A stretch of 64,000 nucleotides of DNA from Christensenellaceae bacterium (GTDB lineage Bacteria > Bacillota > Clostridia > Christensenellales > Borkfalkiaceae): NCBI GenBank assembly GCA_045589615.1, contig JAZNPL010000031.1, positions 38,251 to 102,250 of the forward strand, written 5' to 3'. Under the pieces are notes generated by a model. The model saw only the letters and a program-made list of their open reading frames with translations, was not told the DNA's origin and made no database searches. A program made the translations under genes and the position numbers. How positions within the stretch are numbered: the stretch's first letter is position 1; every line of letters starts with the position of its first letter. Shown here piece after piece: positions 1,692 to 55,173 of this stretch.

Positions 1692-2132
1692 ATGAAAGTT
1701 ATACTCATTAAAGACGTAAAAGGGTCTGGTAAAGCAGGCGATATTATAGAAGCAAAGGACGGTTATGCACAAAACTTTTTGATTAAAAGGGGCTTGGCAA
1801 AACCTGCCGACACACAAGCACTAACCGAAAACCGTTTGCAAAAAGAAGCACAAGCATTTCACAAAGCAGAACAACTTAAAGCAAACAAAGAACTTCGTGA
1901 AAAATTAGACGGTAAAGAAGTTACTATTCAAGTAAAAAGTGGTGCTTCTGGCAAATTTTTCGGTAGCGTAACAAACAAGGAAATTGCCGATAAACTTGCC
2001 GAAATGGGCTTTGAAATCGACAAGAAAAAAATCATTATATCAACCAATATCAAAACTGCTGGAGCATACCCCGTAACGATAAAAATTTCGCCCGAAGAAA
2101 CGGCAAAAATCACCGCCAACATCATTAACTAA
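1692..2132 (+). CDS. rplI: 50S ribosomal protein L9
   Basis: [36 protein letters not shown] is the canonical L9 N-terminus. 146 aa. Confidence 0.95.
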
Positions 2133-2151
2133 AACTTAAAAACACGCTTGA

Positions 2152-3285
2152 TTAAAGCGTGTTTTTCTTTGTTTTCTTTTCAATTTCTTGTTTATAAATT
2201 TCATAGTATTCGTTAGCGGAAACGTTCCAATCGTTAAAGATGTCGCCCGTGTTTTGACTTACCTTTTCAAGCAGTTCTTTGTCAAACGCCAACGAATAAA
2301 TTTTATCAACGAAAGCGGTTATATCATCTTCGCAAATAAAACCCGTAACGCCGTCGGTGAGTGCTTCGCTTGCACCCGAATCTTTTACCACGACCGACGG
2401 AACGCCTAGCGAACCTGCTTCTAAAACGGTTAAGGCACAAGTATCGAACACCGACGGAAATATAAGCAAGTCGGACTTTTGGTATTCTTGTTTAAGTATT
2501 TCGGGGTTGGAAATTCTGCCCGTGAAAATTGCTTCCTTTTCAATACCTAACTTTTTAACTTGTCTTTTATATTTTTCTAAATCTTCCCCAGCACCTACTA
2601 GTTTTAGATTAACTTCTACCCCCTTTTCTTTTAGGCGTTTAGCAGTTTCTAGAATAAAGGGTACTCGCTTAAAGTCAACCATAAGCCCTACGAAAATTAG
2701 ATTGATTTTACCAAGCGACCTATCTTTAGGTTTAGGGGTTTCCTTTTTAAAGTTACAGCCGTTTCTAACTACCGTTACGGGACTAGTTAACCCGTAAGAT
2801 TTTAGTTCGGTTTTCATACAGTTGCCCACCGAACAAAGATGGTCGGCTTTTTTAGGGCGACGCATTACGAATTTTAGCAAAATTTCGGCAAAAAGCCCTA
2901 TTTTTAGTGCCTTTTTATAACAATATCTAAACTTAGTATGAACGGTATAAACTAGTGGAACGCCGTGTTTTTTTGCGTATTTATTGGCATACGAAACAGT
3001 CGTTCCAACCGTGTGGCAATGTATGACTTCGGGGGCAAAATCTTTAATTTCCTTTTTGGCAGTTTTGCTAAAAAAAGGCATAGCCCAAAAGTCGTTTTGA
3101 GAAAAGCCTATGCTTTTAAACCTTACCACTTTAAAGGGGTAAGTTCTCTCGTCAATTCTATGATATTCGGGGGCAACCACCATAACTTCATTAGACTTTG
3201 CTAATTCCATTGCGATATGGTAAACCGCCTTTTCCGTTCCGCCGATACCGGGGAAAAAACTGTCTGTAAATAACGCTATTTTCAT
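2152..3285 (-). CDS. glycosyltransferase family 4 (glycolipid-synthase-like)
   Basis: I start it at the internal ATG (MKIALFTDSFFPGIGGTEKAV), which is the GT4 N-terminus. The C-terminal half contains an E-x7-E-like motif (LEAGSLGVPSVV). The upstream 44 codons of the track ORF look like non-coding read-through. Confidence 0.8.
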   Translation of the reverse strand: MKIALFTDSFFPGIGGTEKAVYHIAMELAKSNEVMVVAPEYHRIDERTYPFKVVRFKSIGFSQNDFWAMPFFSKTAKKEIKDFAPEVIHCHTVGTTVSYANKYAKKHGVPLVYTVHTKFRYCYKKALKIGLFAEILLKFVMRRPKKADHLCSVGNCMKTELKSYGLTSPVTVVRNGCNFKKETPKPKDRSLGKINLIFVGLMVDFKRVPFILETAKRLKEKGVEVNLKLVGAGEDLEKYKRQVKKLGIEKEAIFTGRISNPEILKQEYQKSDLLIFPSVFDTCALTVLEAGSLGVPSVVVKDSGASEALTDGVTGFICEDDITAFVDKIYSLAFDKELLEKVSQNTGDIFNDWNVSANEYYEIYKQEIEKKTKKNTL

Positions 3286-3384
3286 ACTGAGATTATAACT
3301 AATAACTACCCACGTTGTCAAGTTATACCACTCTTTAAGGGCGATTAGTTGACAACACTGCTTTTTTTTAGTAAAATACCGTTT

Positions 3385-4686
3385 ATGAAGAAAAAGAAAG
3401 TTAGTTACGTTCAACAAAAGATTGATTTCGACAAAAAAACGGCTGAACCGTACATAACCGAAACGTTTGAGAGTGGTAGAGAAACCCCCGTTTTACCTAA
3501 AGAACCACACGAATACACGGGTAAACCTTTAGCAGACAAGCAAGTTAAACAGTTGACTATGAACAAACTGCTAGGCTTAGAAACGGACAGGACTATTGAC
3601 AAACGCCAAAGGCTTTACAAAAATCTTGTATCGATTGCCTTTATAGTTTTCGTATTGGCAGTTTTAGTAATTACCGCTTATGACGATTTTTTCTCTAATA
3701 AATCGGTAATATCTTTCGACCAACTTTTAAAAACTTTTAGCGTTACTTGGTTTTACTTGCCGTGTGCAATTTTTGCATTGTTTATGAATTACCTACTAAA
3801 AGGCACTAAACTTTCTATACTTTGTAAGGCACAAACTAAAAAATGGCACTTCAAAACTTGTATGGAAACGGGCGTTTTAGGGCATTACTACAACAGCGTT
3901 ACGCCCCTTGCCGTTGGTGGTCAACCGTTTGAAATTTATCACCTTAGTAAACACGGCGTTACGGGTGGAGTTGCCTACTCTTTGCCAATCGCAACCTACG
4001 TTCTTAACCAAATTGCTTTCGTAATTTTAGGAATACTTTCGCTAGTACTATATAATTATAATCTTTTAGATTACGATTCGCATTTTTACGGACATATTCC
4101 CGCGCTTATAACGACACTTGCTTTGATTGGATGTTCGCTTTGCTTGTTTATGCCACTTGCAGTAGTATTATTCTCTATTTTTCCAAAGGCTTCTGCCACG
4201 CTTGTAAGAATAGCAGTGAGTTTAGGCAATAAACTAAAACTTGTTAAAAACCCAACGTTGACCAACTACAAGACCATGCGTTCAGTTTGTAAAAATGCAA
4301 AGTCACTAAAGAATATTGCAAAGCACCCGTGGGCGTTTATATTCACTTTTATACTAAGTTTTGGCGAAACGCTTGCACACGCTTCAATAGCCTACTTTAC
4401 CTTGAAATTCTTTAACTTTAACTGGGCTGCCGCACATATTTACGAGTGGTTTCAAGTTGTTACCATTTGCATCATAATTTCGCTAGCGATAACCTTTATT
4501 CCAACCCCTGGAAATTCGGGTGCTGCAGACTTTTCGTTCTATACGCTGTTTAACACTCAACTAGAAGGTGGTCTTGCCTTCCCCGCTATGATGACTTGGC
4601 GTATTTTGAATTTCTATTCGTATATAATTATCGGGTTTATCTTCACTAGAATTAAAAAGCATACCGATGCTAAACCTAAAAAATAA
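3385..4686 (+). CDS. lysylphosphatidylglycerol-synthase-TM-region-like (flippase-like, UPF0104) membrane protein
   Basis: Polytopic membrane protein with PLAVGGQPFEIYHL and TPGNSGAADF motifs typical of the LPG_synthase_TM family. ATG at 3385. Divergent from the GT4 gene. Confidence 0.65.
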   Translation: MKKKKVSYVQQKIDFDKKTAEPYITETFESGRETPVLPKEPHEYTGKPLADKQVKQLTMNKLLGLETDRTIDKRQRLYKNLVSIAFIVFVLAVLVITAYDDFFSNKSVISFDQLLKTFSVTWFYLPCAIFALFMNYLLKGTKLSILCKAQTKKWHFKTCMETGVLGHYYNSVTPLAVGGQPFEIYHLSKHGVTGGVAYSLPIATYVLNQIAFVILGILSLVLYNYNLLDYDSHFYGHIPALITTLALIGCSLCLFMPLAVVLFSIFPKASATLVRIAVSLGNKLKLVKNPTLTNYKTMRSVCKNAKSLKNIAKHPWAFIFTFILSFGETLAHASIAYFTLKFFNFNWAAAHIYEWFQVVTICIIISLAITFIPTPGNSGAADFSFYTLFNTQLEGGLAFPAMMTWRILNFYSYIIIGFIFTRIKKHTDAKPKK

Positions 4687-4764: not shown

Positions 4765-5472
4765 TTATTTTTTATTTAATTTTCGTATTTCCCTTGTGTT
4801 TTTGTGAAGCCTATAATATAGATAACTTAGTCCCACGCCCATACCACAAATCAGTATTAGCCAATACACGCAACCAAACTGTGGAATTACACCCGGCACG
4901 TACCCAAAAAGCCCTGCTTCGCCGTGGTAATTCATAAAAAAGTAAGGAAAAGTATCTCCCCTACCAAAGTCCACTTCAAACGCCGACATTATTAGGGCAA
5001 ATAGAAAATAATAGGTTAGTGGAATAAGCACAAAAAGACAATGTTTGCCATTTTTAACCTTTTGTTCTTCACATAAAAAGTAATCTAAAATAGCAAGCAC
5101 GGGCGTTACGACGTGCGTTAGTATGCTTGAAAAAGTCCAAACGTTAAAGTCTGCAAAAGGTGCTAATAAGCAACAAAAAACCAAACAAGTAATGGTGATG
5201 CAAGCAGTAAAAACCAATTTTACAACGCAAAGCCCTTGATTTAAGTAATTTTTTCCTTTCGCTAAACCTATTACCGATAGAATTCCAAAAATCAAACAAA
5301 TAGTTCCTATCCAAACGTTAGACTGTTGAGTAAAATAAAACAGCCTTGTAACCCACGGGAAATACCCGTCTTCTACCGAATAGACGCAAGAAAGAATAAC
5401 CCCTAAAAAAGCCGAAACAGCCGTAAAAAAATTTAATGTAATAGAAATTTTCTTTCTTGAAATATTAAGCAT
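4765..5472 (-). CDS. multi-pass membrane protein (possibly Pr6Pr family)
   Basis: Six or seven hydrophobic segments. The YFTQQSNVW motif recalls the Pr6Pr family. The family assignment is tentative. Confidence 0.45.
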   Translation of the reverse strand: MLNISRKKISITLNFFTAVSAFLGVILSCVYSVEDGYFPWVTRLFYFTQQSNVWIGTICLIFGILSVIGLAKGKNYLNQGLCVVKLVFTACITITCLVFCCLLAPFADFNVWTFSSILTHVVTPVLAILDYFLCEEQKVKNGKHCLFVLIPLTYYFLFALIMSAFEVDFGRGDTFPYFFMNYHGEAGLFGYVPGVIPQFGCVYWLILICGMGVGLSYLYYRLHKNTREIRKLNKK

Positions 5473-5487
5473 AAAACCCCTTAAAAC

Positions 5488-6144
5488 CTATAAATGAAAT
5501 TTATCTTTTGGCAAAACCCTAGGCAAAATTGAAACCAAGCCAACGCAAAGCACTGCGTTAATAGCGGTTACCGCTAATTTTACGGGGAGAGTGAGCATAA
5601 GTTTATCAAAACTTATACTGTACATAACCGATAGCCCGAAAGTATTTACCACAAAAGAACTCAAAATAAAGCCTATTGCAAAAGATATAACAGTCTTAAC
5701 GTAATTATTGCCTTTAAAGCAAGTAAATATAACACCTGGGATAAAACCCCAAAGCCCCGTACCTATTCCGATAATTGGGTTATAAGCACCAAAGGGAGCA
5801 ATAATACCACCGATTAAATCGCCAATGAACGCCGAAGCGAACCCAAGCCCAGCACCTAGCGTATAGCCTGCGACAAAACCAATCGTCGAAACGAAAGATA
5901 TTTGCCAAACGTCACTAGCCTTAATGGTTAGAGAGTTTACCACGCAAGAAAGTGCTGAAAATATAGCGGTATATACTATTTTTTGAGTGGTTGAAAGCGA
6001 ATTTCGGTTTTGCTTTTTCTTAAAAGCGAACACGATAATAAGTGCTATTGCCACTACTAAAGCAAGGTAATAATACCAATTTTTAAGCACGTTTCCAAAA
6101 ATTTTGGAAAACTCAAACGGTTTTGTTGCAAGAAAATTGAACAT
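5488..6144 (-). CDS. folT: ECF-transporter S component, folate family
   Basis: 218-aa membrane protein with 5-6 TM segments, directly downstream of a THF riboswitch. Confidence 0.75.
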   Translation of the reverse strand: MFNFLATKPFEFSKIFGNVLKNWYYYLALVVAIALIIVFAFKKKQNRNSLSTTQKIVYTAIFSALSCVVNSLTIKASDVWQISFVSTIGFVAGYTLGAGLGFASAFIGDLIGGIIAPFGAYNPIIGIGTGLWGFIPGVIFTCFKGNNYVKTVISFAIGFILSSFVVNTFGLSVMYSISFDKLMLTLPVKLAVTAINAVLCVGLVSILPRVLPKDKFHL

Positions 6145-6202
6145 AAAAAAATCTCCTAAAGTAATTTTAGAGAGACCGATAAAATAACCCTAACGGGCGA
6201 TA

Positions 6203-6295
6203 ATAGCGGACGCGCAAAAAATACCGCAGACACTTGTCTTTCGTTTGCAAACGACATCCCATTTTGCAACACTTGACGCATTTTTGCTACTCTAT
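6203..6295 (-). promoter_or_regulatory. THF (tetrahydrofolate) riboswitch
   Basis: The minus strand reads ATAGAGTAGCAAAAATGCGTCAAGTGTTGCAAAATGGGATGTCGTTTGCAAACGAAAGACAAGTGTCTGCGGTATTTTTTGCGCGTCCGCTAT. This matches the conserved AGAGUAG..GCGU.AAGUGU..AUGGGAUGUCG..ACGAA..GCGG..CGUCCGCU blocks of THF-I. Confidence 0.85.
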
Positions 6296-6366
6296 GTTTT
6301 TATTTTAACATTAAATGGCTATCAAGTCAACTTTATGGTATATTTTTTTGTGCGTTTTGCCATAAT

Positions 6367-7059
6367 ATGCGTATGCTTACAGTTTTTATAAGAACACTTA
6401 TAATATTTATAACCTTAATGGTAGTAATGCGGTTTATGGGCAAGCGTCAGATTGGCGAAATGCAACCTTTTGAATTTATAATAACCCTAATAATAGCCGA
6501 TTTAGCGTGCATACCAATGGCAGACGTATCAATTCCACTTTTATACGGAGTGGTGGCAGTATTAGGTCTATTTTTACTGCATCAAATCATATCGGTATTA
6601 GAACTTTTTGGCGATTCCGTCAAAAAAGTCTTATCGGGCAAGCCGAGCGTAGTAATAAATAAACAAGGGGTTGACCTAAAAGAACTAAAACGCAACAATA
6701 TGGGCGTAGAAGACCTAATCGAATCAATGCGTTCTTGCGGGTATTTTTCACTTGACGACGTGGAGTACGCAATTTTTGAATCTAACGGAAAACTTTCGGC
6801 GTTAGAAAAAGCCCAAAAACCTTACGATTCGCCATCACTACCCTTGCTTTTAATAAGCGACGGCAAGATTAACCCAAAAAATCTAGAATTAATTAACACC
6901 GAACGCCAAACGGTTATAGACTATTTGCAAAACAAAAACTTTAACCTTAAAAACACCGAAGTATTAACGGTGGACGGAAACGGCAGAAGTTATTTTAAAT
7001 ATAAAAACAAAAAGTACGAAATTTTTGATTTTCCCTTAAAGGAGAACGTCAAATGGTAA
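6367..7059 (+). CDS. DUF421 (YetF-like) membrane protein
   Basis: RFMGKRQIGEMQPFEFIITLIIADLA is the DUF421 signature. Confidence 0.8.
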   Translation: MRMLTVFIRTLIIFITLMVVMRFMGKRQIGEMQPFEFIITLIIADLACIPMADVSIPLLYGVVAVLGLFLLHQIISVLELFGDSVKKVLSGKPSVVINKQGVDLKELKRNNMGVEDLIESMRSCGYFSLDDVEYAIFESNGKLSALEKAQKPYDSPSLPLLLISDGKINPKNLELINTERQTVIDYLQNKNFNLKNTEVLTVDGNGRSYFKYKNKKYEIFDFPLKENVKW

Positions 7060-7430
7060 AAACTTTAATTTCAATAGCCGTAGTATCTTGCCTTTTAATT
7101 GTCGGTTCTCTATATGAAATAAACCACGTAAACAAGCAATTTAACGATTTTAATCAAGTTTTGACCGTTCTATACGACAAAATTGAAGACCAAACTGCAA
7201 CGACTGACGACGTTTATGCCGTTCAAGATAATTGGCTAAACAAAAAGAAAATGCTTCACGTCTTTATCCCCCACACCGAAATAAAAGAAGTCGATTTATG
7301 GCTATCCGAAACGGTGAGATTAGTCCACGACAAACAGTGGACAGACGCAATTTCTAAAGTCGAAGTCTTAATAGAACTATCCGAACAAATCCCCAAAACC
7401 TTTTCCTTAAAAATAGAAAACGTTTTCTAG
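7053..7430 (+). CDS. DUF4363-like small protein
   Basis: 125 aa with an N-terminal TM segment. It overlaps the DUF421 stop. This pairing is recurrent in Clostridia. Confidence 0.6.
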   Translation: MVKTLISIAVVSCLLIVGSLYEINHVNKQFNDFNQVLTVLYDKIEDQTATTDDVYAVQDNWLNKKKMLHVFIPHTEIKEVDLWLSETVRLVHDKQWTDAISKVEVLIELSEQIPKTFSLKIENVF

Positions 7431-10708: not shown

Positions 10709-10774
10709 AAAAATTTTTAAAAAAATCGTTGACAAATATTAGAAAAAAAAGTAAACTAAAAACGAACTCAATAT

Positions 10775-10930
10775 TATCCGGTAGGTAAGGCTACCATAGG
10801 GATACGGGCTGCTGCCGCAAACTAGTGGAGACACTACGAGATGGTTTCAACAGACTACGTCGAAAACAAGGCGTAATCCAATGCAGTTTCACTGCCCTAC
10901 GGTGCTAAAGCCAGCATGGTAACAGTACTT
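10775..10930 (+). promoter_or_regulatory. M-box (ykoK) Mg2+ riboswitch
   Basis: GGTAGGTAAGGCTACC..GGGATACGGGCTGCTGCCGCAAA..GGAGACACTACGAGATGGTTTCAACAGACTACGTCGA..AATGCAG..CTACGGTGCTAAAGCC aligns block by block with the B. subtilis mgtE leader. Confidence 0.9.
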
Positions 10931-36826: not shown

Positions 36827-36942
36827 AAAAAAACAAAAAAGGGCGCAAAATTTCCGCTTAAGAAATTTTCGCCCAGACGCACGGCTTAATATTAGTTTTT
36901 ATTGCACTATGGTACACCATACTTACTCGTCAGTAATAAAAA
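36827..36942 (-). promoter_or_regulatory. ZTP (pfl-motif) riboswitch with overlapping terminator
   Basis: The minus-strand RNA reads UUUUUAUU-ACUGACGAG-..AUGGUGUACCAU-AGUGC-AAUAAAAA, then a linker, then GCCGUGCGUCUGGGCG. GACG...CGUC covaries with the consensus GGCG...CGCC pseudoknot. The terminator GGGCGAAAAUUUC..GGAAAUUUUGCGCCC plus a U-run shares the GGGCG of the aptamer. Confidence 0.85.
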
Positions 36943-36966
36943 CTCCCTTTGTTTTTTAACGGTATA

Positions 36967-38295: not shown

Positions 38296-39171
38296 ATGTT
38301 AGATTTTATAGTCAACCCATCTGCCGGTGGAAAAGACGGTAAGAAAATTAAAAAAGCACTCCCGAAAATCGAAAAATATCTTTATGAAAAGGGTGTCGAT
38401 TACCTAATTCATATGACCAAAATGCCCAACCAAGCAACCGAAATGACTGCTTCGTTAATAAAAAACGGTGCAACCGACATAATCGTTGTCGGTGGGGACG
38501 GTACGCTTCACGAAGTCATAAACGGCTTTTCCGATTTCGATAGGGTTAATATGGGTATCATCCCTTGTGGCACGGGTAACGACTTCGCTTCTGCTATCGG
38601 CTTGCCATTAGACCCTGTTGAAGCATTAAAATTAATCGTTGATGGAACGCCTAAATATACCGACTTTATGCAAATGCCAACCGTTAGGGGGCTAAACGTT
38701 ATCGGTATGGGTATCGACGTTGACGTTTTGAAACGCTACGAAGCGTTGAAAAAGAAAACTAAGTTTAAATACACCACTTGCCTAGTAAAAACCTTGTTTG
38801 ATTTTGAATATTCTGATTTCGACTGCGTTATGAACGGCAACAAAACGCATTATCGTTCGTTTATCGCTTGCATTGCAAACGGAAATCGCTACGGTGGTGG
38901 TATTCCCATTTGCCCCGTCGCTGACCCAACTGACGGTAGTTTAGACTTCCTTGCAGTTAAGGAAATTAAACGCATTAAAATCATTGGTGCGTTCTTAAAA
39001 CTAAAGAAAGGCAAGATTTTAGAATTGCCACAATCGATACACGAAAAAATGACCGAAATCAAAATCGAACTACCAGTAGAACACTACACCGTCAACGTGG
39101 ACGGCGAACTTTACGAAGACATACCGTTTGAAGTAAAAGTAGTGTCCAACACCTTAAAAGTTTATAGATAA
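38296..39171 (+). CDS. diacylglycerol/lipid kinase family (YegS/DagK-like)
   Basis: NPSAGG, VVGGDGTLHEV and PCGTGNDFA motifs. Confidence 0.85.
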   Translation: MLDFIVNPSAGGKDGKKIKKALPKIEKYLYEKGVDYLIHMTKMPNQATEMTASLIKNGATDIIVVGGDGTLHEVINGFSDFDRVNMGIIPCGTGNDFASAIGLPLDPVEALKLIVDGTPKYTDFMQMPTVRGLNVIGMGIDVDVLKRYEALKKKTKFKYTTCLVKTLFDFEYSDFDCVMNGNKTHYRSFIACIANGNRYGGGIPICPVADPTDGSLDFLAVKEIKRIKIIGAFLKLKKGKILELPQSIHEKMTEIKIELPVEHYTVNVDGELYEDIPFEVKVVSNTLKVYR

Positions 39172-39189
39172 AAGGTAAAATTGATTATC

Positions 39190-39219
39190 AAACTCGCTTT
39201 TTTGTAAAGCGAGTTTTTG
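39190..39219 (+). terminator. terminator after the lipid kinase gene
   Basis: AAACTCGCTTT-loop-AAAGCGAGTTT followed by a T-run. Confidence 0.7.
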
Positions 39220-39233
39220 TTTTGCCTACAAAA

Positions 39234-39501
39234 AACTGCTTGATAAAATTTTTTATATGTGATATACTACTTACGTCACACGAACTAAATATGAAAGCAA
39301 GACTAAACTAGGGAATATTTTATTGTTTTAATGGAAATACTCTCGTTGAAATAATTTGTTAAAAATGCAAATTCCAACAACGGGAGTGCTTAGTCATTGC
39401 TTTTGTTCGTGTGACAACGACGGGATTTGCGTTTTATGTGCGGCAACTCTCGTTGTCGCATTTTTTTATTAAAGGAGAAACAGTATGAAGAAAAAAGTTA
39501 C
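39234..39501 (+). ncRNA. structured RNA module 1: promoter, ~190-nt folded RNA, terminator, 8-codon stub
   Basis: TTGATA (39240), 17 nt, TATACT (39263). P1 GTCACACGAAC/GTTCGTGTGAC (39275-85/39405-15). P2 39294-306/39390-403. P3 39339-48/39378-87. Terminator TGCGGCAAC-TCTC-GTTGTCGCA plus T7 (39439-67). Then AGGAG and ATGAAGAAAAAAGTTACAACTGCTTGA. Confidence 0.6.
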
Positions 39502-39769
39502 AACTGCTTGATAAAATTTTTTATATGTGATATACTACTTATGCGAAACAAACTAAATAGCAAAAATGAGCGACATTTTTTAATTTTAGGGGATTTTTAT
39601 ACCTTTTTTTGTGCATTCTATCTTTACGGATTTGATAAAACTGCAAATTCCACCGGATAGAATCGCAAGTTCGCTCTTGTGCTATTAACGGTTTGTTTCG
39701 CAACAACGGAGTTTGCGTTTTTGTGCGGCAACTCTCGTTGTCGCATTTTTTTATTAAAGGAGAAACAAC
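39502..39769 (+). ncRNA. structured RNA module 2 (leader of the 77-aa ORF)
   Basis: Its promoter block is identical to module 1 (39502-41). P1 TGCGAAACAAAC/GTTTGTTTCGCA (39542-53/39691-702). P3 ATTCTATC/GATAGAAT (39615-22/39656-63). The terminator (39724-52) and RBS are identical to those of module 1. Confidence 0.6.
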
Positions 39770-40003
39770 ATGAGGAAAAAAGTTACAAACGAAGACGTTG
39801 GTGTACTTTTCAAAAAAGTTGCCGACCAAGTAAAAAGCGAAATGGACTATGATTTTAGGGTTGCACAAAGTCAAATGTATCTTGCCGAAAACGATTTGAT
39901 TGAAACCTTAGACGAAAATCAAAAGAAATTATATCGTGATTATTTAGATAAAAGAGACGTGTTTTATGCAATAGCAAAAGAACTTTACGTAAGAAAATTT
40001 TAA
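39770..40003 (+). CDS. small helical hypothetical protein (77 aa)
   Basis: AGGAG RBS. MRKKVTNEDV...ETLDENQKKLYRDYLDKRDVFYAIAKELYVRKF. It resembles small Clostridial proteins of unknown function. No family is assigned with confidence. Confidence 0.55.
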   Translation: MRKKVTNEDVGVLFKKVADQVKSEMDYDFRVAQSQMYLAENDLIETLDENQKKLYRDYLDKRDVFYAIAKELYVRKF

Positions 40004-40010
40004 AACTTAA

Positions 40011-40039
40011 AAGAGCCAAGTTTGGCTCTTTTATTTTTG
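40011..40039 (+). terminator. terminator after the 77-aa ORF
   Basis: AAGAGCCAA-GT-TTGGCTCTT followed by TTATTTTT. Confidence 0.7.
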
Positions 40040-40066
40040 TTAAATTATAATTATTTAATCCACAAC

Positions 40067-40146
40067 TTGCCGTTAGGCAAATTTCACTGCGAAGCAATTT
40101 CACTTGCATAAAGCAAATTTCACAAATCCATAAGGATTTATTTCAC
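40067..40146 (+). repeat. array of four contiguous [variable hairpin + ATTTCAC] units
   Basis: TTGCC-GTTA-GGCAA ATTTCAC / TGC-GAA-GCA ATTTCAC / TTGC-ATAAA-GCAA ATTTCAC / AAATCC-ATAA-GGATTT ATTTCAC. There are no gaps between units. Confidence 0.8.
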
Positions 40147-40436
40147 TTTTTTGGAATAGCAACTATCTGACCGTAAAATAGGTATGGAATTTCGCCGTTT
40201 AGACTTTCAAACTCACTGTTTGATAAGCAAAATTTGTTTAGGACTTGTTCTAAGGTTTCAAACGGCTTTACTTGATAGCAATAGGTTGCGTTATCGCAGA
40301 TGAGAAGCAAGTCGCCCGCTTGAATTTCGCAATTTAGACGGTTTAGTTTTATTAGATATAACGGAGATACCTTAAAGGCGTTGGCAACGCTTAATATGGT
40401 ATCTTTTTTTTCTACTCTATAAATAATCTTTTTCAC
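40143..40436 (-). CDS. small protein with two LysM-like repeats
   Basis: YRVEKKDTILSVANAFKVSPLYLIKLN...AGDLLLI and YQVKPFETLEQVLNKF...GQIVAIP. GTG start with no clear RBS, so the start is uncertain. Confidence 0.5.
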   Translation of the reverse strand: MKKIIYRVEKKDTILSVANAFKVSPLYLIKLNRLNCEIQAGDLLLICDNATYCYQVKPFETLEQVLNKFCLSNSEFESLNGEIPYLFYGQIVAIPKK

Positions 40437-40490: not shown

Positions 40491-42026
40491 TTGGAGCAAG
40501 AGATTTTGAAAGGGTTTTTTAAGACCGTAGCAGTAATAACCGTCTTTTCGGTTTGCGAAAAATTTTTAGGGTTTTTATATAGAATTTTTTTATCTAGAAC
40601 AATAGGTTCTGAAGGCATTGGTATTTATCAAGTTGCACTATCAGTGTTTGCATTACTTTTAACGCTAATTTCTTCGGGAACGCCAATCACCGTTTCAAGA
40701 TTAATGACAAAATACAAAGCCGAAAAGGACAACGCACGGGTAGAAAAAGTAGTATCGGCTGGCATTTTCTTTACGCTTTTTCTTGCCCTACCAATTTGCT
40801 TGATTATATACCTATTTAGAAATAGTCTATCGCTAGTTTTTGCAGACCCACGCTGTACGCCCGTATTTTTAATAGTTTTACCGGGTCTAGTTTTCACTTC
40901 GGTTTACGGGGTTATCCGTGGCGTGTTTTGGGGAAATAAAGATTTTTTACCATACAGTATAATAGAACTTTTAGAAGAAATTTGTATGATTTTCGTTGGA
41001 AGCATACTGATTTTATTTTCTAAGTCGGCATACCAAGGAGCAATTTACGCAGGGGTGGCAGTCCTTGTATCGTACGTCTTTTCTTTTTCACTTGCAACAC
41101 TAGTATTTTTCATAAGAAAAAATCGGCTAGTAAACCCCAAGGGCGAACTACTTCCCTTAATCAAGTCTGCAACCCCAATAACTGCTATGCGAACGGTAAA
41201 TTCGCTTGCCGTTTCTTTGGTTTCAATAGTGTTGCCGTTAAGATTAATGCAAGCGGGCTACACCAACGCACAAGCCTTGTCGGCGTTCGGCTCGGCTTCT
41301 GGTCAAGCAATACCGATACTCTTTATTCCCACTACCTTAATCGGTTCGTTCACTTTGGTTTTAGTGCCTGAAATTGCCGAAAACTATTATAAAAACAACC
41401 ATAAAGCACTAAAATTAGATATAGAAAAGGCAATAAAGTTTACCGCCGTTCTATCTTGCGTTTTTATACCACTATTTATCGTTTGTGGCGAAGAAATAGG
41501 CATTTTAATTTTCAATAGCCACGAGTGTGGAAAATATTTAACGGCTTCTGCATTTTTAATGCTATTTATGGGACTTAGTAGCGTTACGACGAGTATTCTC
41601 AATTCAATCGGCTTAGAAAATAAAACGCTTTTCTACTTTATAATAAGTTCGGTCTTTATGCTACTTGCCGTGTGGTTTTTACCGAAATTTATCGGCGTTT
41701 ACGCACTGCTTGTAGGCTTTACTTTCGTGTACGGAATAACTACGGTATTTAATCTTATCCTAATAAATAAAACCTGCAAAATCAAGCCGAAATACCTAAA
41801 ATATCTATCGTCTTGTTGCCTACTTTGTTTACCCACTCTTTTGTTTGGACTATTACTAGAAAAACTACTTCTACCCGTCATTGGAAACAATTTTACATTT
41901 TTAGTGGTAGGCTCGCTTAGTGCATTATTTTCAGTAGCGTTATATTTTGGTTTTGGACTTATCGACTTTAAGTTTATTAAAGAAAAACTGCCAAAATTCC
42001 GCCTTAAAAAACAAAAAATAGCGTAA
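40491..42026 (+). CDS. MOP-superfamily polysaccharide/lipid II flippase (SpoVB/MurJ-like)
   Basis: 511 aa with about 14 TM segments. The N-terminus (FLGFLYRIFLSRTIGSEGIGIYQ) is typical of the SpoVB-type family. TTG start, uncertain. Confidence 0.7.
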   Translation: MEQEILKGFFKTVAVITVFSVCEKFLGFLYRIFLSRTIGSEGIGIYQVALSVFALLLTLISSGTPITVSRLMTKYKAEKDNARVEKVVSAGIFFTLFLALPICLIIYLFRNSLSLVFADPRCTPVFLIVLPGLVFTSVYGVIRGVFWGNKDFLPYSIIELLEEICMIFVGSILILFSKSAYQGAIYAGVAVLVSYVFSFSLATLVFFIRKNRLVNPKGELLPLIKSATPITAMRTVNSLAVSLVSIVLPLRLMQAGYTNAQALSAFGSASGQAIPILFIPTTLIGSFTLVLVPEIAENYYKNNHKALKLDIEKAIKFTAVLSCVFIPLFIVCGEEIGILIFNSHECGKYLTASAFLMLFMGLSSVTTSILNSIGLENKTLFYFIISSVFMLLAVWFLPKFIGVYALLVGFTFVYGITTVFNLILINKTCKIKPKYLKYLSSCCLLCLPTLLFGLLLEKLLLPVIGNNFTFLVVGSLSALFSVALYFGFGLIDFKFIKEKLPKFRLKKQKIA

Positions 42027-42047
42027 ATTTTTACGCTATTCTTTTTG

Positions 42048-54340: not shown

Positions 54341-54706
54341 TCAGTGCTTTTGATTTATTTTATTTTCTATTGTAATACAAGAAGAAGTTATAAGCCTACG
54401 AATTCTTCCACAAAGATTTCTGTTGTTTTTATATGTTTCTTCGGTTATATTTTCTGCCAAAAACAAAAGTTTTAACCAACTTTCAGTCTCTACACACTCT
54501 TTTCTTGCTATCTTAAATTTAGATAACATATCTGCTAAACTTTGTGGATATTGTGCTTCGGAAACGTTTGCAAACACGCTTGATGAAGATTTTCTAATTT
54601 GAAACAAGGTGTTTGAAACCCCTTTTATATTTGACAATGATTTGCAAAGAGTTTCAATTTCAATCGCCAATTTTTCTGAATATTTTAAAATTAAATTTTC
54701 TTTCAT
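54341..54706 (-). CDS. four-helix-bundle protein (23S rRNA IVS protein / Avd-like family)
   Basis: 121 aa. QIRKSSSSVFANVSEAQ and KFKIARKECVETESWL match the TIGR02436/PF05635-type pattern (Q..RS..SI.aNIaEg ... A.gS..E). Confidence 0.75.
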   Translation of the reverse strand: MKENLILKYSEKLAIEIETLCKSLSNIKGVSNTLFQIRKSSSSVFANVSEAQYPQSLADMLSKFKIARKECVETESWLKLLFLAENITEETYKNNRNLCGRIRRLITSSCITIENKINQKH

Positions 54707-54725
54707 AAACCTATTTAATAATAAT

Positions 54726-54875
54726 CACGGTTTACCGTGAAATGGAATCAGCACAATGTGCTGTATGAAATCAAGACGTTAGTCTTGTATGTAAACAACA
54801 CGAAGACAAAAATTTTTCTCAACTAATATGATTACATACGCCTTTTAGGCGATTACATACCAACACTTCGTGTTG
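54726..54875 (-). repeat. second array of short variable hairpins separated by ATTTCAY-like spacers
   Basis: The minus strand reads TTTACATA[CAAGAC-TAAC-GTCTTG]ATTTCATA[CAGCAC-ATT-GTGCTG]ATTCC-ATTTCAC-GG-TAAA-CCGTG. Upstream of this are [CAACAC-GAA-GTGTTG] and [GCCTAAAAGGC] flanked by GTATGTAATC twice. Confidence 0.7.
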
Positions 54876-54909
54876 TATAAAAACGCTATATCGTTGGATA
54901 TAGCGTTTT

Positions 54910-55019
54910 TGGTGCCGCTGGCCGGGGATTCCCCTATTAGGGGAAATGTCTTGCTTCGCTTCCCTTGACCAACTATCAAGACAAAAGGGTTGCCGTCCCC
55001 TGCTAAGGGATTGAACCGG
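54910..55019 (-). pseudogene. tRNA-Leu 3' fragment interrupted by an 85-nt insert
   Basis: 54910-54925 (TGGTGCCGCTGGCCGG) is identical to 55087-55102. 55011-55019 (TTGAACCGG) is identical to 55105-55113. In the intact tRNA these two pieces are 2 nt apart; here they are 85 nt apart. Confidence 0.55.
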
Positions 55020-55086: not shown

Positions 55087-55173
55087 TGGTGCCGCTGGCC
55101 GGACTTGAACCGGCACGGTATCGCTACCACTGGATTTTGAGTCCAGCGCGTCTGCCAATTTCACCACAGCGGC
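55087..55173 (-). tRNA. tRNA-Leu (anticodon CAA), class II with long variable arm, CCA encoded
   Basis: The reverse complement is GCCGCTGTGGTGAAATTGGCAGACGCGCTGGACTCAAAATCCAGTGGTAGCGATACCGTGCCGGTTCAAGTCCGGCCAGCGGCACCA. It forms a cloverleaf with anticodon loop CUCAAAA. Confidence 0.9.

Follow-up and report, generated by a model that had tools for sequence, protein, structure and literature searches.

Identity of a hairpin array at the 3' end of a LysM gene as a Gut-1 element, and the association of its family with PF05635 genes

The 64,000-nt stretch of contig JAZNPL010000031.1 analysed here (Christensenellaceae bacterium, assembly GCA_045589615.1; referred to below as the window) contains, at positions 40067–40146 between two convergent genes, a row of small hairpins separated by one repeated heptamer, which raises the questions of what kind of element this is, on which strand it acts and what it might bind. 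As had been claimed from a reading of the letters alone (the original prediction), the + strand of this interval can be parsed without a leftover base into four different hairpins (TTGCC-GTTA-GGCAA, TGC-GAA-GCA, TTGC-ATAAA-GCAA and AAATCC-ATAA-GGATTT), which alternate with four identical ATTTCAC heptamers (exact copies starting at 40081, 40097, 40117 and 40140), and the last heptamer does contain the TGA stop codon (40143–40145) of a LysM open reading frame (ORF; 40143–40436, minus strand). As a motif the array was already known, being a member of Gut-1, an orphan family in Rfam since 2010, and its presentation as a novel motif had to be given up. Its interest lies less in the array than in the family-wide context, namely a two-armed architecture and synteny with genes of the PF05635 family.

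A scan of the whole window with Rfam covariance models yielded a match to RF01706 (Gut-1 RNA) on the minus strand at 40148–40076, covering model positions 1–77 of 77 with a score of 62.5 bits (gathering score 50, E=5e-10). Judged by this model, and by four heptamers and four hairpins where Gut-1 calls for at least three variable hairpins joined by GUGAAAU linkers, the array is a minus-strand member of Gut-1 that is followed by a GUUGUGG tail. In the Gut-1 sense, the window unit reads as GUGAAAU and then a hairpin, which is the sense of the LysM gene; since the array starts in the LysM stop codon and ends before a terminator shared by the convergent genes, it is therefore transcribed as the LysM 3' untranslated region (UTR). 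The proposal that it forms the 3' UTR of the 77-aa gene on the other side did not survive, as the family model fits the minus strand and the array lies past the terminator of that gene. For practical annotation, the array is Gut-1, minus strand, LysM 3' UTR, without a tie to the 77-aa gene or its leaders.

The Gut-1 motif goes back to Weinberg et al. 2010 (PMC2864571; Genome Biol 11:R31), where it had 43 members, all of them from human-gut metagenomes. That study rated it a certain RNA on covariation, and one that is not cis-regulatory, and named neither an organism nor a gene context or function (PMC2864571); Rfam annotates it as type Gene; sRNA. In the flanks of the seed sequences, a terminal hairpin is found beyond the end of the Rfam model, followed by GUUGCGG or GUUUGA, and some members have, ~30 nt further on, another array in inverted orientation that is made of AUAUCAC and hairpins. 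The window copy resembles the family in its variable-sequence hairpins parted by GUGAAAU linkers and in the terminal hairpin and tail that it shares with the seed flanks. It may also share a source among gut-associated, uncultivated bacteria: its closest relatives are metagenome contigs, and family members are mostly metagenome-assembled genomes (MAGs) of gut Clostridia. It differs in having a fourth hairpin and the GUUGUGG tail past the model end, in beginning inside a stop codon instead of behind a terminator, and in the absence of an inverted second arm. The additions made here to the published description are the tRNA/rRNA terminator contexts, the PF05635 genes and the two-armed layout.

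Read on the minus strand, the element emerges from the end of the LysM-domain gene (97 aa, 40143–40436; Pfam LysM), of which it forms the 3' UTR. Heptamer 1 (GTGAAAT, 40140–40146) contains the LysM TGA and aligns to Rfam model positions 3–9; hairpin 1 follows (AAATCC-TTAT-GGATTT, 40124–40139), with a stem that recurs in two of the related contigs introduced below (L124 and the second copy of L122). Parse and Rfam model then agree on heptamer 2 (GTGAAAT, 40117–40123), hairpin 2 (TTGC-TTTAT-GCAA, 40104–40116), heptamer 3 (GTGAAAT, 40097–40103) and, beyond hairpin 3, heptamer 4 (GTGAAAT, 40081–40087). Hairpin 3 (TGC-TTC-GCA, 40088–40096) has a stem of just 3 bp (TGC-GAA-GCA on the + strand) and reads TGCGAAGCA on the + strand, which holds the DNA mini-hairpin sequence GCGAAGC. 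The Rfam model ends at the 5' arm of hairpin 4 (TTGCC-TAAC-GGCAA, 40067–40080), and a terminal hairpin at this position is found across the family, both in seed flanks and in family tails. Directly after it come the conserved tail GTTGTGG (40060–40066; family consensus GTKRRGG) and the AT-rich tail ATTAAATAATTATAATTTAAC (40039–40059), which is 100% identical in L124 and L125. The latter includes one degenerate inverted heptamer, GTTAAAT (+ strand, 40039–40045), where two-armed elements carry their second arm, and we read it as a probable remnant of such an arm. A hairpin with T and A tracts follows (40008–40038); on the + strand it is the intrinsic terminator for the 77-aa gene, on the minus strand a weaker one for the LysM transcript.

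The original prediction had taken the frequency of ATTTCAC as a check on the array. Over the 64-kb window the heptamer is not enriched, with 17 copies found vs 11.2 expected, whereas four of the 17 lie within 66 nt with neighbours parted by perfect palindromes; the signal of the array is thus the clustering of heptamers combined with palindromes. A generic search of the window for constant-spacer hairpin arrays returned 54.7–54.9 kb as its sole region; the detector, which required stems of at least 4 bp, did not chain the main array, one of whose stems is 3 bp. The window holds one canonical array only.

When genomes, one per species, were scanned for the pattern, at least 120 loci were returned, ~75 of which, among the loci listed, were true hairpin arrays; together with 61 protein-anchored loci (see below) these make up the family examined. 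Nearly all of the true arrays listed are from gut Clostridia MAGs (Oscillospiraceae, Acutalibacteraceae, Ruminococcus, Christensenellaceae), the others being from a few Akkermansia and one Bacteroidaceae. A phage origin was rejected, as only ~5 of 120 pattern matches in viral contigs were true hairpin arrays and the rest almost all chance; metagenome contigs searched for exact copies of the window array's terminal unit gave 0 matches. Within the loci listed, 193 of the 219 hairpins are distinct in sequence, so that the variable-hairpin, constant-spacer design noted at the outset is real and a defining trait of the family, yet 97–98% of stem pairs are Watson-Crick, and the heptamer is GTGAAAT or GTGATAT throughout, in Clostridia, Akkermansia and Bacteroidaceae alike. 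On these alignments, with hairpins that differ while their pairing is kept and a heptamer that is conserved, it is the sequence that is under constraint in the heptamer, and only the shape in the hairpins.

As a rule, a Gut-1 array forms the left arm of an inverted element that has two arms, (GTGAAAT-hairpin)n and then (hairpin-ATTTCAC)n. The first arm, which is what Rfam models, starts with a T-run, CAAC and GAAAT, continues with short hairpins and ends in GTKRRGG, after which comes a stretch complementary to GAAAT and the 5' arm of hairpin 1. The second arm lies directly behind, inverted and with longer hairpins. In canonical elements the arms are bounded by inverted repeats (GAAATAAATCC/GGATTTATTTC), of which only AATCC/GGATT is left in the window. 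Where the heptamer varies, as ATGAAAT, GTGAAGT or GTGATAT in the PF05635-anchored loci, the inverted arm carries the matching complement. Heptamers are spaced 16–27 bp apart and are not helically phased. A further 27 arrays in related loci scored 54–89 bits against Gut-1 in the same orientation relative to their neighbours, and a one-armed class has its own terminator behind it, with two tandem copies in locus L012.

The elements are placed non-randomly with respect to upstream genes. Relative to the nearest upstream feature, 49 first arms are co-oriented and 15 opposed; 16 of 79 units lie 30–140 nt behind a tRNA gene, all 16 of them co-oriented, and a strong intrinsic terminator usually stands between the upstream gene and the array. 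In the window and at three further loci (L018 3422–3500, L044 3061–3106 and L061 6730–6805), the first heptamer supplies the TGA stop codon of the upstream ORF, and in L044 the array lies between two same-strand ABC-transporter ATPase genes 81 nt apart. From these stop codons and from the operon position in L044 it follows that, at least there, the first arm is transcribed in the GUGAAAU sense.

Several individual loci show further arrangements. In L111 (2046–2853), a Gut-1 element ends an rRNA operon in the order 23S, tRNA-Lys, tRNA-Glu, 5S, tRNA-Asn, Gut-1, a position that recalls the PF05635 genes residing in 23S rRNA intervening sequences. In L118 (4297–5183), two near-identical two-armed elements, each with its own terminator ahead of it, stand on either side of a small leucine-rich-repeat gene downstream of tRNA-Ala; the second element is followed by a tRNA 3' fragment, and the layout resembles a gene cassette. 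The long terminator hairpins ahead of arrays, which are perfect palindromes, differ between related loci by loop inversion only (TACC/GGTA, AAAA/TTTT, TTAC/GTAA), as seen in L257 vs L263, in L261 vs L262 and in the two L118 copies (4262–4296 and 4977–5011).

Which genes accompany the elements was addressed by an all-against-all comparison of 565 neighbouring ORFs. Only PF05635 proteins and ABC ATPases were recurrent, and the one specific recurrent family, of ~115 aa, was PF05635 (23S_rRNA_IVP) / TIGR02436. This family has long been known inside 23S rRNA intervening sequences, and to our knowledge its only characterised relative is Avd, the accessory protein of diversity-generating retroelements (DGRs). 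Inclusion of Avd in the PF05635/TIGR02436 'four helix bundle protein' family is documented in a DGR review (PMC10053308), which was all that a literature search for PF05635 function returned; PADLOC gave no match for the PF05635 proteins or neighbours tested. The closest solved structure to the PF05635 protein is 2RLD, with five chains, and the family representative 2GSC has been described as five four-helix bundles (PMC10053308, ref. 25).

In the motif-anchored sample, a PF05635 gene follows 40–54 nt beyond the second arm, on the strand of the first arm's sense, in 8 of 79 units. When 80 metagenome loci were instead fetched by PF05635 protein alone, 61 of which had enough upstream sequence, at least 55 of the 61 carried arrays no more than 320 nt upstream of the PF05635 gene, and most of the remaining six had the same layout with variant heptamers. 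Array density in these loci is ~4.7 per kb upstream of the gene vs 0.14 per kb elsewhere. The order is fixed: tRNA or other gene, terminator, first arm, second arm, last ATTTCAC, -35 box, 17 nt, TATAAT, ribosome-binding site and ATG. The outermost heptamer abuts the -35 box of the PF05635 gene (TTGAAA, TTCACA or TTGGCA), so that the element fills the gap from an intrinsic terminator, very often that of a tRNA/rRNA operon, to this box. In an Akkermansia MAG (L006), the PF05635 gene (6162–6518) is enclosed by at least five tandem 197-nt repeats of hairpins and GATATAAC spacers (5770–7132); separately, three tandem 439-nt repeats are found in this MAG (1997–3306), each with a Gut-1 match.

The window has a PF05635/TIGR02436 gene of its own, encoding the Avd-like protein that the original prediction had already put forward as a possible binder, and the association in both samples upholds the family as a candidate partner. 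This gene (54341–54706, minus strand) is not adjacent to the canonical array. It lies downstream of tRNA-Leu, a terminator (54880–54909) and then a variant two-armed hairpin array (54725–54879, minus strand) with spacers TATGTAAT, then TTACATAC / TTTCATAC / ATTTCAC, in the layout of Gut-1 elements elsewhere. The last 16 nt of the tRNA-Leu (TGGTGCCGCTGGCCGG, + strand) occur at 54910–54925 as well as at 55087–55102, as a duplicate ~160 nt downstream of the tRNA and just ahead of the terminator-array-PF05635 block; such duplicates are of the kind left by integrating elements, but no integrase gene is found nearby.

How stable the canonical array is among relatives could be followed in five contigs (L121–L125) recovered through LysM homologues. 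In L124 and L125, the array plus tail (window 40146–40024, which takes in the 5' arm of the terminator hairpin shared by the two genes) is identical to the window at 123 of 123 nt, with LysM coding sequences that are 70.7% identical and alignments that are 86% (L124) and 81% (L125) identical. L122 and L123, although ~93–94% identical over the aligned region, keep only the last two array units, and L121 has no array though its flanks are 92–93% identical. The conservation in relatives that had been proposed as a check was thus complete in L124/L125, partial in L122/L123 and absent in L121. In L121 the same terminator hairpin directly follows the LysM stop, with the junction CCTAAAAAA/TAAAAGAGCC where the window has CCAAAAAA, then the interval from GTGAAAT to TTTAACAAAAA, then TAAAAGAGCC. 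An A run is present at both junctions in L121 and in the window, where an A6 run at the 5' junction (40147–40152) and an A5 run (40034–40038) form a direct repeat bordering the ~110 nt missing in L121, and both LysM protein versions end in PKK. For L121, an empty site and a deletion that joined the A runs are equally possible, since either would give the same result.

A second copy in L122 lies behind a MurJ-like gene, so that two copies are present on one 5.3-kb contig. It is 92% identical to the window array, with three differences in the array proper, all in loops, and two bases that turn the first GTGAAAT into the canonical CAACGAAAT start. It sits at a rearrangement junction whose breakpoint is within a terminator loop. 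Rearrangement breakpoints between the relatives fall more generally in the hairpin loops of intrinsic terminators (window 40018–40023 and 42000–42040 vs L122 and L124), for example after AAAAGAGCC and, behind the MurJ-like gene, after ATAGCGTAAA. We infer that the window copy is a solo, partly decayed element without an adjacent PF05635 gene, its second arm apparently reduced to one degenerate heptamer, and, because relatives carry the array identical, cut to two units or not at all, that it is probably dispensable for its neighbours.

The evidence for RNA or DNA as the acting form is mixed. Orientation bias, the stop-codon and operon cases, one-armed copies with their own terminator and the RNA fold of a 148-nt stretch including the terminator (z = -5.9) point toward RNA; folded as DNA, the array alone gives z ~ -3 on either strand. 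Toward DNA, or both strands, point the stems without G.U excess, the mirrored polarity of the arms, the mini-hairpin loops and the position of arrays upstream of the PF05635 promoter. In a first sample of stems, 16 G.T and 20 A.C were found in 1488 pairs, with no G.U excess on either strand, and in a second sample 7 G.U-type vs 21 A.C in 1044 pairs. Used as a strand test, G.U vs A.C was unbiased in the first arm (7 vs 9) and weakly biased in the second, where the read-through sense has 32 G.U against 16 A.C with both samples pooled. The polarity of heptamer and loop is the same in both arms though they lie on opposite strands, and therefore one transcript cannot explain both. Loops read on the ATTTCAC strand are GAA, GCA, GTA and GNNA, with C:G as the closing pair, which is the rule for extraordinarily stable DNA mini-hairpins (PMC13037366, PMC3201870); on the GTGAWAT strand, GCTTCGC was found 22 times and GCGAAGC 0 times. 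RNAfold predicts a ladder fold in which the heptamers of the two arms are paired in one RNA. This is unlikely to be a selected feature, as the rungs share one conserved sequence without independent co-variation, and under nested pairing the ATGAAAT/ATTTCAT subgroup keeps a conserved A.C mismatch in either sense.

These results are compatible with the idea that the element is a multivalent platform displaying its heptamers to an oligomeric binder, an explanation of the whole, solo window copy included, to which we give a probability of roughly 0.5. A multivalent binding site had been among the roles first suggested, and it is the best candidate reading of the array. About five identical heptamers per arm, held apart by rigid hairpins, would be presented to the binder either as RNA (a read-through or 3' UTR transcript) or as DNA. 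The best candidate for the binder would be the pentameric PF05635 protein encoded next door, although we name this specific partner only tentatively, and it is doubtful, if possible, that Gut-1-type arrays and PF05635 pentameric four-helix-bundle proteins are one previously unrecognised module. If they were, PF05635 would recognise the arrays that flank its gene, each arm offering ~five heptamers to the five subunits; the module would establish itself downstream of tRNA/rRNA operon terminators, echoing the residence of PF05635 in 23S rRNA intervening sequences; and solo arrays like that of the window would be orphaned binding platforms or footprints of the module. The synteny turns two orphans, Gut-1 and PF05635, into one testable pair, of which PF05635 is a widespread family with solved structures and Gut-1 is now placed in named gut lineages (Oscillospiraceae, Acutalibacteraceae, Ruminococcus, Christensenellaceae, Akkermansia).

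A number of observations weigh against the platform and its proposed partner. Other genes lie downstream of 71 of the 79 motif-anchored units; the protein-anchored sample represents one PF05635 subfamily (65–99% identity), whose loci are not independent events; and the PF05635 protein of the window is 34% identical to this subfamily and has a different spacer motif next to its gene. The association with PF05635 could reflect a shared insertion preference or common descent instead of interaction. As the arrays lie upstream of the PF05635 gene's own promoter, a role as RNA needs read-through of a strong terminator, and the second arm would then be transcribed in the sense opposite to the first. 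For duplex DNA, the unphased spacing of 16–27 bp is ill-suited to cooperative binding.

Much of the same evidence bears on the rather unlikely alternative that the element is a selfish or recombinogenic palindromic repeat, resembling REP/BIME or miniature inverted-repeat transposable elements (MITEs), with hairpins that form in single-stranded DNA and a heptamer recognised by a nuclease or transposase acting in trans, in which case the window copy would be an insertion without host function. Such a repeat would account for presence or absence with precise borders and an A5–6 direct repeat at both junctions (window vs L121), for the gain or loss of whole units (4 vs 2 vs 0 units in relatives; copies in L009 and L012), for the 92%-identical second copy at the L122 rearrangement junction, and for an array that is 100% identical between genomes with 86%-identical flanks. 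The arm-bounding inverted repeats GAAATAAATCC/GGATTTATTTC, the stems without G.U excess on either strand and loops that follow the DNA mini-hairpin rule on the ATTTCAC strand fit as well. However, no transposase or RAYT-like gene recurs among the 565 neighbouring ORFs, the 64-kb window has a single canonical array, the bias relative to the upstream gene is strong (49 vs 15; tRNA 16/16) and the position by PF05635 promoters is fixed; moreover, hairpin sequences differ within one array, unlike those of REPs, and deletion between A runs explains L121 equally well. Another alternative, in line with the Rfam annotation, is a regulatory RNA acting in trans, stand-alone or derived from a 3' UTR, which might for instance titrate, as a sponge, some RNA-binding protein that is not PF05635. 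Its support comes from the rating as a certain RNA by Weinberg et al., co-orientation with the upstream gene or tRNA, transcription in the GUGAAAU sense at the four stop-codon loci and in the L044 operon, one-armed arrays with their own terminator (and the two tandem copies of L012) and the fold z-score of -5.9. We nevertheless think it unlikely: no consistent conserved promoter was found upstream of the second arm or in the family, most copies lie directly behind a strong terminator, stems are not enriched in G.U, the mirrored second arm with its unchanged heptamer-loop polarity on the other strand is unexplained by a single transcript, and close relatives have lost the window copy or carry it truncated.

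The site between terminator and promoter, and the symmetry of the two arms, would also suit a two-way back-up terminator or insulator that shields the PF05635 promoter from tRNA/rRNA read-through and antisense transcription. Polymerase coming from either side would meet an array in which the GC-rich hairpins of the far arm, followed by AUUUCAC, act as weak terminators; the second-arm hairpins met in the read-through direction are indeed longer, have AUUU behind them and favour G.U over A.C (32 vs 16 pooled). This is improbable, as a standard terminator scan picks up none of the units, the element already has a strong terminator ahead of it, conservation of the heptamer across phyla is left unexplained, and one-armed copies within operons (L044) would be harmful. 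The original prediction's version, a + strand RNA that shares GCAAATTYCAC with the leaders and is the 77-aa 3' UTR (or, in a variant considered here, a small antisense RNA from 40022–40051), has largely been refuted by synteny already and is very hard to maintain. A promoter-like site (TTGGCT-18-TATAAT, 40022–40051, + strand, 10/12 matches) does point into the array from within the terminator and tail, and could yield a short antisense transcript of it, and one leader 11-mer is one base off the array 11-mer. Yet the array lies past the 77-aa gene terminator, the family model fits the other strand, GCAA within the 11-mer belongs to a stem arm that varies, 5 matches with one mismatch lie outside the array where 2.2 are expected, the leaders match no family, and relatives keep the array without the 77-aa gene and leaders. 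The TATAAT of the promoter-like site falls within tail sequence for which L124 and L122 show 100% conservation.

How the platform would relate to systems already known was considered in turn. REP/BIME sequences of Enterobacteria are short extragenic palindromes with a conserved short sequence of the GTAG type, associated with RAYT transposases. Gut-1 resembles them in the conserved short sequence ahead of each palindrome, alternating orientation, variable copy number and a co-transcribed location behind genes or in the gap of convergent pairs. The REPtron, in which repeats flank the gene of their cognate protein, supplies the logic that we propose for PF05635. The likeness stops short of membership: REP palindromes are sequence-conserved within a genome whereas the four of the window array all differ, the heptamer is GTGAWAT and not GTAG, and no RAYT/Y1 gene is present among the 565 ORFs. 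Modular repeats and MITEs such as pneumococcal BOX (boxA-boxB(n)-boxC), Correia and RUP elements are similar in size (~100–170 bp), variable number of internal modules and presence/absence differences between strains, and apparently also in inverted ends and insertion near gene ends; by contrast, Gut-1 modules are 16–23 nt and differ within one array, canonical copies lack a clear target-site duplication, and the neighbouring gene family is fixed.

If the RNA form is the right one, the CsrA sponges RsmZ/CsrB and the TRAP-binding trp leader offer a parallel, with a short motif repeated by or between hairpins for an oligomeric protein, but the Gut-1 motif is GUGAAAU as against GGA or GAG/UAG, and it is not a member of those families. 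For DNA, the heptads bound by the omega repressor of inc18 plasmids (WATCACW) likewise form arrays of 7-bp sites, placed immediately ahead of a promoter and occurring in both orientations, direct and inverted, and the Gut-1 variant ATATCAC contains ATCAC; omega sites are contiguous, whereas Gut-1 heptamers are parted by unphased palindromes of 9–20 nt, and no ribbon-helix-helix protein is involved. The original prediction was right that the array is neither a terminator nor a CRISPR. A scan for terminators, in which a GC-rich hairpin runs straight into a U tract, reports only 40008–40033, which with its T tract confirms the claimed terminator of the 77-aa gene, and none of the four units. A CRISPR array requires repeats of ~23–50 nt, non-palindromic spacers of similar length and cas genes, whereas the repeat here is 7 nt, the spacers are palindromes of 9–16 nt and no cas genes are nearby. 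An integron attC site, a single imperfect hairpin between RYYYAAC and GTTRRRY core sites that goes with an IntI integrase, was rejected on account of several perfect small hairpins, of CAAC and GTTGTGG being only loosely like core sites and of no integrase among the neighbours. A ToxI-like type III toxin-antitoxin RNA, in which near-identical tandem repeats of ~36 nt precede a terminator and a toxin gene, was rejected because the units differ in sequence and length (16–23 nt), no conserved toxin gene was found downstream and PADLOC gave no match for the neighbours tested.

The original prediction had further connected the array, through a recognition element, with the leaders of the 77-aa gene. 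Its 11-mer, GCAAATTTCAC, was said to occur three times but is found twice (40077 and 40113), the middle unit reading GCAATTTCAC, and the part that it shares with the leaders includes the GCAA stem arm, for which the family shows no conservation. Relative to the family's sense, the leaders lie on the opposite strand, and even a permissive Rfam scan of 39150–40250 matched them to no family. All five recovered relatives, with or without the array, lack the 77-aa gene and leaders, whose place is taken by a Fic/Bro-N gene or by DUF3990/HTH genes. The 77-aa ORF has no match in Pfam, NCBIfam or PADLOC. Ahead of it, window 39236–39770 holds two tandem copies of a promoter (TTGATA-17-TATACT at 39240 and 39508) with a ~240-nt leader, each leader ending in an identical terminator (39438–39461 and 39723–39746). 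Elsewhere in the window, three riboswitch aptamers score above Rfam thresholds, namely M-box at 10770–10926 (+ strand), THF at 6202–6296 (minus strand) and ZMP/ZTP at 36864–36947 (minus strand), with names matched to coordinates in the order given.

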